The notes beneath the pieces were generated by a model, which did not search any database, was not told where the DNA came from, and worked only from the letters and a program-made list of their open reading frames with translations. Positions 31,615 through 59,706 of a stretch of DNA of 64,000 nt are shown here, one piece after another. The stretch is from Gaiellales bacterium (GTDB taxonomy: Bacteria > Actinomycetota > Thermoleophilia > Gaiellales > Gaiellaceae), in the NCBI GenBank assembly GCA_038237515.1, contig JBBRYP010000009.1:7953-71952 (forward strand), written 5' to 3'. Numbering within the stretch: position 1 is the first letter of the stretch; every line of letters starts with the position of its first letter. A program made the translations under genes and the position numbers.

Positions 31615-31670
31615 CCGCTTCGCCTCCGGGTGTCCCGTGCGCCGAGTGCGGCTACCGAGGCCACTGAGTC

Positions 31671-31890
31671 CGACGACGGCGAGGCGGGCGAGGTAAAGAA
31701 CCTCCTCGGCGTTGAAGGACCAGTCATTGGTGTGCATGAGCCGGTAGGCGAGTGCATGTGCACGGAGGGGGCGAAGGGGGGAACTCCGTTCCCCTCTTGG
31801 AGCGGAGGCGAAGCTGCAGCGATAACTCCAACATCCCGTATGGCAGCCGGGGGTCTCGGGGGGCGCGAGCCCCCCGGAAAGCGAGGCGCC
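31671..31890 (+). repeat. Copy A of the ~230-nt structured intergenic repeat (3' end diverged or truncated)
   Basis: Shares ...GAGCCGGTAGGCGAGTGCATGTGCACGGAGGGGGCGAAGGGGGGAACTCCGTTCCCCTCTTGGAGCGGAGGCGAAGCTGCAGCGATAACTCC...GCCGGGGGTCTCGGGGGGCGCGAGCCCCCCGG with the copies at 36775 and 51392. Confidence 0.85.
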
Positions 31891-36080: not shown

Positions 36081-36320
36081 CTAGTGGGACGCGCGCGTCG
36101 GGCTGCGGTCCGGGATCCGGTAGCCGTGATCCTCGCAGAGGCTGCCGGGCGCATCCTCTGTCAGCGCGTCGCAGTAGCCCTTGCCGTACGCCGCGCGCAT
36201 GAAGGCCGCGACGACGCCGAGGTTCCACTCGTCGATCTCGCATGCCTCCCGCCAGAGGTCCGCGAGACGAAGGTCGATGTCGAGCTCGAGAAGCTCGATC
36301 CGAGAGGGGTCCTTTGCCAT
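36081..36320 (-). CDS. Small acidic hypothetical protein (79 aa)
   Basis: ATG 36320 (MAKDPSRIELLELDIDL...). Third-position GC is very high. Immediately upstream of ccmE on the same strand. Confidence 0.55.
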   Translation of the reverse strand: MAKDPSRIELLELDIDLRLADLWREACEIDEWNLGVVAAFMRAAYGKGYCDALTEDAPGSLCEDHGYRIPDRSPTRASH

Positions 36321-36517
36321 GGAAAAAGCGTAGGTCCGGCATCGGACGACATGAGTCGCTTGGCTTCTCGTGCGGAGCGGCGGCTTTTCCGCGCAGCGGC
36401 TCCAACCAGGCGCGTAGTGGGAGGCGGAGGGCGGGGGTGGCTCTTCGCTTCCGAGGGCGGGGCGGGCGGCTTTGCGGCGCAACTAGTCCCACTCGGGCGC
36501 GGCGAGAGGCGATGAAC

Positions 36518-36737
36518 GCGAGGGGCGCGATTGAATCGCTTCGCTCCTCCGGGGCTCTCGCCCCCCGAGCCCGCCGGCGACCATGCAGGCGAGAGCAGTT
36601 GGACGCTCCGCCTGCGGCTCCGCTGGATGGGGGACTCGGCGTCCCCCATCACCCCCCGCGGCGCAACTGGACTGGGCCTTCGGCCCGCAGATACCAAGGG
36701 GAGGCTCCCAAAGGCAGCGAATCGAGGGACGATCACC
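36518..36737 (-). repeat. Copy B-left of the structured repeat (most diverged, inverted relative to B-right)
   Basis: Its reverse complement aligns along its full length with 36775-37012 (GGTGAT...TTGGTA...GCCGAAGG...GGGGGAC-GCCGA-GTCCCCC...AGCGGAG...CTCGGGGGGCGAGAGCCCC...GCGATTCAATCGCGCCCCTCGC). Confidence 0.75.
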
Positions 36738-36774
36738 CGGGCTGCCGTGACGGGTGGTGGAGAGGTCAACCGAC

Positions 36775-37012
36775 GGTGATGGAGAGCGTCTGTGCACGGA
36801 GAACCTCATCGGCGAGGATGGAGAACCGTTGGTACGCACGAGCCGGAAGGCGAGTTGCATGTGCCCGGAGGGGGCGAAGGGGGGAACTCCGTTCCCCCCT
36901 TGGAGCGGAGGCGAAGCCGCAGCGATAACTCCTCGAAGGGTGTAGGCAGCCGGGGGGTCTCGGGGGGCGGGAGCCCCCCGGAAGAGCGGAGCGCTCAATT
37001 CGCGCCCCTCGC
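36775..37012 (+). repeat. Copy B-right of the structured repeat (full length)
   Basis: Near-identical over about 235 nt to the reverse complement of 51392-51625. Hairpins GGGGGGAAC-TCC-GTTCCCCCC, CCGGGGGGTCTC...GGGAGCCCCCCGG and GCGC-TCAATTC-GCGC. Confidence 0.9.
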
Positions 37013-37120
37013 AAACCCGCCCCTCGCCCGCCCCGCCTCTCGCCGAGCCGGGTCGCACGCGTTGCCGTCCGGAAAGCCGCCCGCTCCGGGACGGAGTCCC
37101 CTACGAGCTATCGTCGCCGC

Positions 37121-38029
37121 ATGACCCCGACGATCCGCCTCGGGCCTGCGCGCTGCCCGTCTCGAGAGAGTCCCGACGAAGCGATCCGGCTCCTGCTCGA
37201 GCGCGGCTACACCGCCTGCGAGCTCGACTTCGAGGGCCGGTTCTGGATGGATTACGCGTTCGCGGAGCGCCTCGGCGCGCTCGGGCGCGAGGCGGACATC
37301 GCCCTCTCCGTGCACGCGCCGATCGCCGGGTTCCTCGGCCAGCTGGAGCGCGACAAGAAGCACCGGATGGCCCTCGGCATGCTCGACCATTCCGCGGGAC
37401 TCGCGGCAGCGGCCGGCGCCGAGCTCGTCGTCTTCCACCCAGGCTTCCTCCTCGGCCGGGAGCGGCAGGCTGCGCTCGACGCGGTCGTCGAGCAGCTCCG
37501 GGAGCTGCGCGAGCGGCTCGAAGCGAAGGGACGAGCGGTTCCCTTCGGGATCGAGATCATGGGGCGCGTCCGCGAGCTGGGCACCGCCGCGGACGTCTTC
37601 TTCGTCGCGGCGCAGCTGCCCTGGGTGCGTCCCGTGATCGACTTCGCGCACCTCCACGCCGTCACCGACGGCGGTTTCACCGAGGCAGGAGCGTTCGCCG
37701 GCGTCCTGGAGATCGCAGACTCGATCCTCGAGCCGGGGATTCCCTTCCACGTCCACTTCTCCGACATCGCCTACGCGAACCGCAACGAGACGAAGCACCT
37801 CTCCTACGGCGAGGGAACGCTCCGCGCCGGCCCTCTGCGCGAGGCTTTGGCGGCCTGCGAGCGGCCCGCGACGGTGATCAGCGAGTCGCCGGACGAGGCG
37901 TCACATCAGGCGATCGGAGCGGCACTCGCCTCGAGGACTGCCGCGAGCTTGCCCGCTGGAACGAGCTCGAGCAAGCGGCGCGCGAAGGGCTCCGCCTCGT
38001 CGCCGCGGTCACGCTCGACGAGGAACTGA
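37121..38029 (+). CDS. TIM-barrel AP-endonuclease-2 / endonuclease IV-like (xylose isomerase-like fold) protein
   Basis: SVHAPI, VVFHPG, GIEIMG, IDFAHLHA, HVHFSD: the metal-ligand pattern of the Nfo / sugar-phosphate-isomerase fold. The last ~40 codons overlap the convergent gene. Confidence 0.7.
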   Translation: MTPTIRLGPARCPSRESPDEAIRLLLERGYTACELDFEGRFWMDYAFAERLGALGREADIALSVHAPIAGFLGQLERDKKHRMALGMLDHSAGLAAAAGAELVVFHPGFLLGRERQAALDAVVEQLRELRERLEAKGRAVPFGIEIMGRVRELGTAADVFFVAAQLPWVRPVIDFAHLHAVTDGGFTEAGAFAGVLEIADSILEPGIPFHVHFSDIAYANRNETKHLSYGEGTLRAGPLREALAACERPATVISESPDEASHQAIGAALASRTAASLPAGTSSSKRRAKGSASSPRSRSTRN

Positions 38030-51305: not shown

Positions 51306-51391
51306 CCCGATCGACGGTACGGACGCCGTCGGACGCCGTCCTTGCGGGACGCAGCGAGTCCGAGCCGACGCGCGGCGAGGGCCAGGGGAAA

Positions 51392-51625
51392 GCGAGGGGC
51401 GAGTGAATCGCTGCGCTTTGCCGGGGGGCTCTCGCCCCCCGAGACCCCCGGCCGCCTACACCCTTCGAGGAGTTATCGCTACGGCTTCGCCTCCGCTCCA
51501 AGGGGGGAACGGGGTTCCCCCCTTCGCCCCCTCCGGACACGTGCACTCGCCTGCCGGCTCGTGCATACCAACCAGTCCTCCAAGAACGCCGAGAGGTTCT
51601 CTGGGCACAGATGCTCTCCATCACC
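51392..51625 (-). repeat. Copy C of the structured repeat (full length), 87 nt upstream of and co-oriented with recJ
   Basis: The reverse complement begins GGTGATGGAGAGCATCTGTGCCCAGAGAACCTC and ends GCGATTCACTCGCCCCTCGC, colinear with 36775-37012. Confidence 0.9.
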
Positions 51626-51688
51626 GCGCGCGGGTCGCACTCGTTGCGCTCCGCATCCCCGCCCGCGGAAAGCGAAGACTCGTACGGG

Positions 51689-51970
51689 CTATTCGTGCGG
51701 GAGCGGTCCGACGAAGAAGGACAGCACCACCATGGCGCCGAGGACGGCCAACGTGACGGCGACGATCAGCCGGGGGTGCCGCTGGTTTCGCAGCGACTGG
51801 AGCGCGATCCTCACCCAGAGCGCGATCAGCATGACGGCGGCTCCGACGGCTGCGACGATCACGGGCGCGAGCACTGCGGCTCGATCCCACGAAAGCTCGA
51901 AGAGATACGCGACGAGGACGGTCACGCCCGCACACGCGAGCGCAGAACCGACGAGCAGCCTCGGCCTCAT
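51689..51970 (-). CDS. Small membrane protein (3 TM, 93 aa)
   Basis: Three hydrophobic helices, high third-position GC, no family recognised. Confidence 0.5.
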   Translation of the reverse strand: MRPRLLVGSALACAGVTVLVAYLFELSWDRAAVLAPVIVAAVGAAVMLIALWVRIALQSLRNQRHPRLIVAVTLAVLGAMVVLSFFVGPLPHE

Positions 51971-58543: not shown

Positions 58544-59307
58544 TCAGATCATGAACGCGCCGCCGTTGTGGTCGATCGCCTGCCCTGTGACGCCGCGGGC
58601 GTCGGGCGAGAGCAGCCACGCGACGGTGCCGGCGATGTCCTCGGGAGCGCTCATCCGGCGTAGGGGCACCTGGCTCATCGCGATGCCGTGGGCGTCCTCG
58701 CGGGTGCCGCCGATCTCGGCGGCGAGTCCGTCCAGCCCCTCCCACGCCATCTCGGTGTCGACCCAGCCCGGGCAGATCGCGTTGACGTGCGCGCCCGCCG
58801 GCGCGAGCTCGGCGGCGAACGCACGCACGAGCCCGAGCAGCCCGGCCTTCGAGGCGCAGTAGCCCGTGTAGCCGGCGACACCGATCCGGGCGAGGATCGA
58901 CGCGATCACGACGACATGCCCCCCCCTCCGGCCCATTCAAGAGGTGCGGCTCGGCCGCCCAGACGCAGCGGTAGGTGCCGACGAGATTCGTCGCGACGAG
59001 ATCCTCGTAGCGATCGCCTGGCCCTGCCGCGTTCGGGCCGCCCATGCCGGCGTTCGGGACCAGCGCGTGGAGCGGGCCGTCTCGCTCCACGGAAGCCGTG
59101 AAGGCTGCGTCCACCTGCTGCGCGTCGCGGATGTCGCAGGCCGCGAAGAAGGCGGCCGCGTCGCGTGCCACGGACGCGAGGCGCGCCTCGTCCCCGAGCG
59201 AGCAACGTCAGGCGAGCGCCGTCCGCCGCGAGCCGAAGCACAATCGCCCGCTCGATACCAGTTCCGGCACCGGTGGCGACGACGTGCCGCCCCTCGATTC
59301 GCCCCAT
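58544..59307 (-). pseudogene. Short-chain dehydrogenase/reductase carrying two +1 frameshifts
   Basis: N-terminus VVATGAGTGIERAIV in one frame, PNAGMG...TNLVGTY in a second, and YTGYCASKAG...NAICPGWVDT in a third. The shifts map to the C4 run (59192-59195) and the C8 run (58918-58925). Confidence 0.75.
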
Positions 59308-59678
59308 GACCGATCAGGTTATTCAGAGGTTGACGCGGGAGGCGCTACGAGCTAAGGGCCTGTCCACAAAGTGAGCCAGGGCGCCTGACAGACGTCACGC
59401 GCCTCGATCCGGCGTCCTCGGTCGCGCAGATATGCCTGCATATCGACGCTCCCTGCGTCCTTGCCTCAAGACGCGTGCCGCCTGTCATCCACCGTGGCCA
59501 CTTTCCGGACAGGCCCTAACCGTGCCGCGCGACGAACAAGAGGCTCATGAGGAAAGCAGGGGGGTTCTCTCCGCTCGCTTGAGTCGCCACCGCATATCCA
59601 GTCGCGGGCGGAGCCGGGCTCCGCCCGGCGGGAGCCCACGGTGCAGTGGCCAGTACGCCGCGCAGAAGAAGGGGGCCA

Positions 59679-59703
59679 ACGGGGGAAACCTGGTTTCCCC
59701 CGT
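59679..59703 (-). terminator. Candidate terminator hairpin after pdxS
   Basis: ACGGGGGAAACC-AGG-TTTCCCCCGT begins 3 nt after the pdxS stop and is followed by TGGCCCCCTTCTTCTG (a weak U tract). Confidence 0.45.
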
Positions 59704-59706
59704 TCT

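Follow-up and report, generated by a model that had tools for sequence, protein, structure and literature searches.

Probable insertion of a lineage-restricted, non-coding mobile repeat, as a head-to-head pair, between two divergent promoters upstream of cytochrome c maturation genes in a Gaiellaceae genome

Why should two divergently transcribed genes of a bacterial chromosome be separated by a long, foldable inverted repeat? In the 64-kb stretch that we analysed from the genome of an uncultured soil actinobacterium of the Gaiellaceae (64,000 nt; hereafter the window), a gap at positions 36321–37120 lies between two divergent genes. The one on the minus strand is a conserved 79-aa open reading frame (the small ORF), with ccmE and ccmF after it; the one on the plus strand encodes an AP_endonuc_2/xylose-isomerase-like TIM-barrel protein (the TIM gene). 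An earlier note on this DNA had described the gap as 800 nt of non-coding sequence, had recognized in it two copies of a repeat arranged back to back, and had proposed that these were a divergent pair of 5'-leader RNAs, a MITE-like composite or a cruciform-forming regulatory region. The gap is indeed 800 nt long and contains no ORF with coding-like composition. The window (G+C 70.7%) is otherwise core chromosome, with tgt, queA, queG, two-component systems, relA, recJ, ruvABC, yebC, pdxST and the ccm genes. A Pfam scan of ~49 genes of the 64-kb window found no transposase, integrase, reverse transcriptase, TnpB or RAYT, and thus none of the partner proteins (RAYT- or TnpB-like) that had been suggested as worth looking for.

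The back-to-back arrangement is present as described, with ATCACC, the reverse complement of GGTGAT, at 36732–36737, GGTGAT itself at 36775–36780, and 37 nt between them. The outward-facing inverted ends are likewise there, comprising an outer pair of 49 nt (36518–36566 and 36964–37012, 80% complementary) and a second pair of 44 nt (36604–36647 and 36881–36924, 73% complementary). The left copy (L) is recovered when the right copy (R) is used as a blastn query in the window (E = 1.7e-13), and it scores 107 bits with a covariance model for which the best unrelated match scores 16.5 bits, so that the homology of L and R is far beyond chance. The inverted pair thus stands as proposed; its size, ~500 bp, does not. 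Aligning R, L and a more distant copy, C (described below), with wider flanks revealed ~75 nt more of similarity past the reported outer ends, a stretch that we call the tail. R reaches ~37098 and L reaches ~36440 (36418 where the tail is delimited as a feature), and the inserted inverted block, including an additional solo tail (L2), occupies ~36353–37098, that is ~745 nt versus the 495 nt of the earlier description. A full unit is ~310–340 nt long and consists of a head (GGTGATGGAGAG), a GC-rich hairpin core and a ~75-nt tail. Searching the window with a tail profile (nhmmer) yielded five tail modules, every one of them attached to element copies: those of R, C and L, together with L2 and a module that we call T3.

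Read from left to right, the gap begins with what corresponds to one half of the ancestral promoter region on the small-ORF/ccmE side (36321–36352, minus strand), the CATG..GAAAAGGGTAGGACC..GTCGGACGACAT block of nearly all relatives, within which lies the conserved motif ATCGGACGACAT (36341–36352, minus strand). The solo tail L2 follows as the outer left end of the block (36353–36417, minus strand; nhmmer E = 2e-12 over 36340–36417); its identity is 81% with the R tail and 89% with T3, and it forms an inverted repeat with 37069–37088. Next come the L tail (36418–36517, minus strand), recognized by continued alignment and by nhmmer (E = 5e-17 over 36425–36516), and the L core (36518–36737, minus strand), identified by blastn and the covariance model as a diverged outgroup of the family with 58–67% identity to the other copies. 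The 3' 140 nt of L are alignable to these copies and its 5' ~55 nt almost unalignable. The 37-nt spacer between the two heads (36738–36774) has no similarity elsewhere in the window that we could find, and contains, at 36753–36764, GGTGGTGGAGAG, a near-duplicate of the R head. The R core (36775–37012, plus strand; 166 bits) comprises the head, a hairpin with a GNNA loop and a multi-branch 3' domain made up of a closing helix (P1), an 11-bp hairpin (H1), a 9-bp hairpin with a GNRA loop (H4) and a terminal hairpin. The R tail (37013–37098, plus strand) ends in ...CGCTCCGGGACGGAGTC and aligns with the C and L tails, T3 and L2. The gap closes with the other half of the promoter region, on the TIM side (37099–37120, plus strand), where GCTATCGT matches the GCTAGCGT or GGTAGCGT of relatives at the same position.

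To establish what this site looks like elsewhere we compared 80 CcmF-anchored loci from Gaiellaceae and Thermoleophilia genomes (best CcmF identity 80%), in which the order cyclase, TIM gene, small ORF, ccmE, ccmF, M23 peptidase and Nramp is kept. Among the 62 relatives with both flanking genes present, the divergent gap between the TIM gene and the small ORF has a median length of 58 nt and measures at most 125 nt in 47, whereas it is 800 nt in the window. The short gaps have a layout in common: CAT-G..GAAAAGGGTAGGACC..GTCGGACGACAT lies next to the small ORF, and the TIM start is immediately preceded by a box of the TAGCGT type. Both of these ancestral halves are kept in the window (36321–36352 and 37099–37120), ~745 nt apart. 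A second such site lies upstream of recJ: the gap between a small membrane-protein gene and recJ is 48–51 nt in relatives versus 383 nt in the window, and its recJ-proximal end reads ...CCTCCG-TAGCGT/TACGGT-N8-ATG in relatives and ...GCGTCCG-TACCGT-CGATCGGG-ATG in the window. Judged by this comparison of sequences, the ~745 nt of DNA are shown to be an insertion relative to the ancestral state, with the ancestral −10 boxes surviving on either side. Both comparisons of filled with empty sites are between species only, and since the nearest relative has a protein identity of 75–80%, the empty sites give the ancestral state rather than a record of recent mobility. The next-best RecJ anywhere is only 75% identical, which means that there is no congeneric genome for comparison, and absence of the element elsewhere is therefore absence at roughly family-level distance.

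Eleven relatives (loci L014, L021, L022, L026, L043, L052, L057, L061, L063, L066 and L068) also have an enlarged gap between the TIM gene and the small ORF, of 480–4625 nt. We considered whether these gaps hold the same element and rejected this, the DNA being unrelated, with some of it common to those relatives. Insertions seem to have landed at this divergent promoter repeatedly.

The surviving promoter halves bear on whether the repeats could act as 5' leaders. In the window a −10 box, TACGCT (36327–36332), lies 6 nt before the ATG of the small ORF (36320); TATCGT (37109–37114) lies 6 nt before the ATG of the TIM gene (37121); and TACCGT (51314–51319) lies 8 nt before the start of recJ, with copy C ending just upstream of that box. 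A TANNNT hexamer ending 5–9 nt before the start codon is found for the small ORF in 61 of 62 relatives and for the TIM gene in 50 of 62, against a background of 0.2%. In mycobacteria the SigA −10 box is TANNNT and precedes the transcription start by 6–13 nt; leaderless mRNAs make up about a quarter of the total (PMC6448022). From the conserved boxes 6–8 nt before the start codons we infer that the small ORF, the TIM gene and recJ are leaderless, in which case the elements would lie upstream of the core promoters and would not be 5' leaders. No TANNNT hexamer occurs in any of the four copies in the window on either strand, which is weak evidence because only about two would be expected by chance, and scans of the elements for consensus promoters and terminators returned nothing. 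As T3 aligns through the TIM −10 box, we asked whether the element had supplied that box; we judge it to be native, relatives having GCTAGCGT at the same place. Two further features of the small-ORF side deserve mention. The motif GTCGGACG(A/G)CA at 36341–36352, ~10 nt upstream of the small-ORF −10 box, occurs in nearly all Gaiellaceae relatives (loci L001–L080) and may be a regulator binding site for the ccm operon. The small ORF itself (36081–36320, minus strand), which lies directly upstream of ccmE and begins MAKDPSRIELLELDIDLRLADLWREACEIDEWNLG..., shows 72–90% identity among relatives and matches no Pfam family; its expression is apparently driven by a leaderless promoter.

The repeat is not confined to this locus. 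Beyond L and R, the window contains two further copies, C (core 51392–51625, minus strand) and A (~31672–31889, plus strand), which brings the total to four copies plus the solo tails L2 and T3; no other genuine repeat family occurs in the 64 kb. With its tail, copy C spans 51321–51625 between the small membrane-protein gene and recJ, and is 82–88% identical to R (87% by blastn). The inverted tail module T3 (51621–51697, plus strand; nhmmer E = 1.2e-15) abuts the head of C; its local alignment scores are 43 with the R tail, 39 with the L tail and 35 with the C tail (maximum of 300 shuffles, 29), and it gives copy C a layout like that of an element with terminal inverted repeats. Copy A, truncated at both ends, fills the convergent gap between the stop codons of the Nramp gene (31614) and the M23 peptidase gene (31890); it is 84% identical to R by blastn (31697–31889), 96% identical over a 77-nt core, and scores 143 bits with the covariance model, which gives 107–166 bits for the four copies. 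R, C and A are 76–88% identical among themselves and L is 58–67% identical to each, so that the nearest relatives of R are the copies 5 kb and 14 kb away and not L. The outgroup position of L means that the pair represents two separate insertions, and we reject a local inverted duplication.

The ends of the units are less regular. In R, L and A head and tail do not form an inverted repeat with each other, each of these copies being a single unit without a terminal inverted repeat of its own; the block from L2 to R, on the other hand, is bounded by inverted tails that are 70–89% identical, and copy C is likewise bracketed. Candidate direct repeats of 5–6 nt flank both insertions (GAGTC at 36353–57 and 37094–98; GTACG(G) at 51317–22 and 51682–87), with uncertain boundaries, and each may be due to chance. 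A model in which the dimer is the mobile unit, of the two-arm type, was discarded, as the tail identities do not partition cleanly. We likewise rejected the idea that the tail is an independent, widespread REP-like motif or an insertion target, the tail profile matching copy-attached modules only and nothing in relatives. Two observations concern the DNA next to these copies. Right after the Nramp stop, at 31617–31628 and ~45 nt upstream of truncated copy A, there is a 12-nt exact inverted copy (GCTTCGCCTCCG) of the core motif CGGAGGCGAAGC, which could be due to chance (E about 0.2 per hit) or could be the remnant of a rearranged copy. The small membrane protein encoded upstream of recJ (51689–51970, minus strand) is 93 aa long here versus 65–69 aa in relatives; its extra 27 C-terminal residues adjoin T3, its stop codon lies inside the stretch that aligns with the tail, and the insertion may have changed the 3' end of this gene.

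Outside the window we found the family nowhere. Two independent probes with 25–27 specified bases, each matching all four copies, had no match in 185,579 species-representative genomes (GTDB), in JGI metagenomes or in IMG/VR; the 80 syntenic loci from relatives, 1.43 Mb in all, yielded no element to blastn, to nhmmer or to a covariance model built on the 3' domain (best covariance-model E = 0.3); and distant blastn searches of plasmids and phages were equally negative. A scan of the whole window with Rfam 15 at gathering thresholds returned only a tRNA, and the HEARO/ωRNA-type, ribozyme and riboswitch models of that release did not match the element. The element is not protein-coding, since R and C differ by 1-nt indels, the composition is non-coding, and a search of 5.8 billion proteins with a six-frame composite gave no homologue. 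We found no description of such repeats in Gaiella in the literature. As far as the collections searched extend, the repeat family is one not described before and is known from this Gaiellaceae lineage only.

The hairpins of the element raise the question of whether it acts as RNA. The earlier note had reported that the strongly diverged L copy keeps its hairpins, and had singled out changes in a G-rich stem and in the terminal stem; both observations are borne out by the aligned copies. The H1 stem changes from AAGGGGGGAAC/GTTCCCCCCTT to AUGGGGGAC/GUCCCCCAU in L, and the terminal stem, which is GCGC/GCGC in R, reads GCGA/UCGC in both L and C. The H1 helix measures 11 bp in three copies (R, C and A) and 9–10 bp, with a larger loop, in L; H4 has 8–9 bp (5–6 in L). 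These features would suit a structured-RNA gene or module that has spread and whose hairpins would be conserved on account of the fold; its product might belong to a family of small RNAs, or might be associated with a transposon and serve as guide or scaffold in the manner of ωRNA or bridge RNA. In keeping with such an RNA, the long-range helix P1 closes a multi-branch 3' domain in both R and L; H4 has a GNRA loop in all four copies (GGGA, GAGA, GCGA and GAGA), the N being the sole variable site within an otherwise invariant 25-mer; in each of the four copies the fold of the element (plus) strand is 7–19 kcal/mol more stable than that of the complement; a change in copy A leaves the H1 pairing intact on the plus strand only, as G·U; and L retains H1 despite ~35% divergence. 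Nevertheless, covariation, the test that had been proposed, did not rise above shuffled controls on any measure. With four copies, 90.8% of cells are paired, 277 of 500 shuffles reach the observed covariation value, the RNAalifold covariation term is +1.38, and only one base pair has changed on both sides. The fold z-score is only −2.1, the structure of the middle of the 3' domain is not conserved in L, and mutually exclusive pairings compete near the 3' end (for example H5 with H5' and P1). A permissive Rfam scan of 36300–37200 (E up to 10) gave chance matches only (E of at least 0.29), neither a −10-like box nor a consensus promoter or terminator is present in or at the head of any copy, and Watson-Crick hairpins are equally expected for recognition at the level of DNA. 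We therefore regard the structured-RNA explanation as unlikely. The retention of the hairpins is real; that it reflects an RNA function is not established, the constraint on RNA and that on single-stranded DNA being inseparable with four copies. A bolder version is that the element is a mobile gene for an undescribed class of structured RNA, for instance a guide or scaffold RNA that partners a transposon-derived enzyme from another part of the genome and whose 3' end reads into adjacent promoter DNA. We consider this very much a long shot; if it were true, the head-to-head pair would set two such RNAs against two divergent leaderless promoters.

The position of the pair might instead suggest that the copies act in cis on ccmE and the TIM gene, as 5' leaders or regulatory regions, whether attenuator-like, riboswitch-like or a cruciform operator. 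As the earlier note had remarked, each copy has its 3' end towards a gene start, which holds for all three promoter-proximal copies, and R ends ~22 nt before the TIM ATG; moreover, the block (635 nt folded as a whole) forms one long imperfect hairpin as a single strand (z = −7.7). The region is, however, wholly absent upstream of the orthologues in 62 relatives, and the same element stands before the unrelated gene recJ and, as copy A, in a 3'–3' convergent gap. The conserved −10 boxes place the predicted starts of the mRNAs downstream of the elements (PMC6448022), which argues against a divergent pair of leader RNAs. For the cruciform, the arms are ~66% identical and the region is dispensable in relatives. 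Arms of such identity, with their matched parts 233–397 nt apart, are a poor substrate for cruciform extrusion. We judge regulatory readings of either sort to be highly improbable. It could also be argued that the pair arose by inverted duplication on the spot or as an artefact of assembly, the source being a contig of a metagenome-assembled genome without a close relative and chimeric reads being able to yield inverted, fold-back structures. Artefacts of this kind give near-perfect palindromes, whereas here the arms differ by many indels as well as by substitution, R is closer to the distant copies than to L, and the ancestral promoter halves on either side are both complete and in the correct orientation; we find this explanation scarcely credible.

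Of the explanations considered, we think it probable that the element is a lineage-restricted, non-autonomous, non-coding mobile repeat of the MITE or interspersed-repeat kind. The MITE-like composite of the earlier note is the proposal that fared well, and this reading follows from the filled and empty orthologous sites, including the second filled site at recJ, the retained promoter halves, the dispersal of the copies and the restriction of the family to one lineage. Mobile repeats typically leave decay products, of which truncated copy A and the solo tails L2 and T3 are examples, and the size, the lack of coding capacity and the stable stem-loops fit the description of bacterial MITEs (PMC5896051). 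Against a mobile element stand the absence of a mobility gene from the window, the lack of a terminal inverted repeat in R, L and A, target-site duplications that are only weakly suggested, the uniform orientation of the promoter-proximal copies and the greater stability of the plus strand in all four copies.

On the mobile-element reading, we suggest that at least two insertions hit a single permissive site, the short stretch that separates the −10 boxes of the two divergent leaderless promoters. This stretch is practically the only dispensable DNA of a 50-nt intergenic region, which would explain why the copies end so near to start codons. A copy of the younger type, R, and the outlying copy L would thereby have come to lie head to head, with the extra solo tail L2 at the left edge. 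It is plausible that L2 and R are the two ends of one element bounded by terminal inverted repeats, as at copy C, and that L was nested later between them. To judge from copy C and the block from L2 to R, long, imperfect inverted tails would mark both ends of the complete unit. The mobilizing enzyme would have acted on the copies in trans, its gene lying elsewhere in the genome, and the hairpins would presumably be kept as recognition or folding signals for mobilization, as single-stranded DNA or as RNA. At the ccmE/TIM locus the elements would be mostly passengers, whose incidental effects may be to cut the two promoters off from upstream sequence common to both and to supply terminator-like hairpins.

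Elsewhere in the window we noted two unrelated features. A short-chain dehydrogenase gene (58544–59307, minus strand) is split into two overlapping frames, C-terminal (58544–58936) and N-terminal (58906–59307), with the break at an 8-C homopolymer (~58920–58928), and is either a frameshifted pseudogene or affected by an assembly indel. Downstream of pdxS is a ~400-nt gap of locally lower G+C (59308–59706), which matches no Rfam family. A hairpin in it, AACGGGGGAAACC-TGG-TTTCCCCCGTT (59679–59705), lies directly after the pdxS stop, resembles H1 of the element and is likely a terminator; a second hairpin lies at ~59603–59628.

The back-to-back structure is not a designed regulatory palindrome, and the locus is a caution for annotation: what looks like a regulatory, 800-nt palindrome upstream of cytochrome c maturation genes is, on the most probable reading, inserted mobile DNA and not an ancestral control region. 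It also illustrates that two divergent leaderless actinobacterial promoters packed into ~50 nt can tolerate a 745-nt insertion when their −10 boxes are spared. The family comes from the poorly sampled Gaiellaceae, with no relative above ~80% protein identity, and could be used as a strain or population marker or lead to the mobilizing enzyme.

Three groups of known repeats invite comparison. Like PATEs derived from IS200/IS605 and the ends that encode ωRNA, several copies are single units without terminal inverted repeats or obvious target duplication, with hairpins near their ends and a structured 3' part of 150–250 nt. Unlike in those elements, there is no HEARO or other Rfam match, no short conserved target motif 5' of the head and no TnpA or TnpB nearby, and inverted tail modules are foreign to the IS200/IS605 family. 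With REP/BIME sequences and with REPINs, which are REP doublets mobilized by RAYT transposases (PMC3116915, PMC3733652), the pair shares its intergenic, inverted head-to-head arrangement foldable into a long hairpin, the occurrence of singlets as decay products, restriction to one lineage and a presumed single-stranded hairpin substrate. REPs, however, are 20–40 nt long with a GTAG or CGTC tag, and the arms of REPINs are nearly identical, whereas here the arms are ~310 nt long and ~66% identical, the head is GGTGAT without either tag, R is related more closely to a distant copy than to its partner, and no RAYT lies within the 64 kb; on unit size, tag and arm identity the family falls outside REP/REPIN. 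The third group comprises Correia/NEMIS elements of Neisseria, RUP of Streptococcus and the MITEs of Coxiella (PMC5896051). From these the present family differs in having inverted ends that are long (~60–75 nt), imperfect (70–89%) and missing from several copies, in lacking a clear target-site duplication, a TA terminus or a known parent insertion sequence, and in consisting of asymmetric units (head, core and tail) instead of simple palindromes. It resembles them in being small, non-coding, intergenic, dispersed, hairpin-forming and lineage-specific, in its filled and empty sites, truncated copies, solo ends and adjacency to promoters, and in the inverted tail modules that bound copy C and the block from L2 to R.
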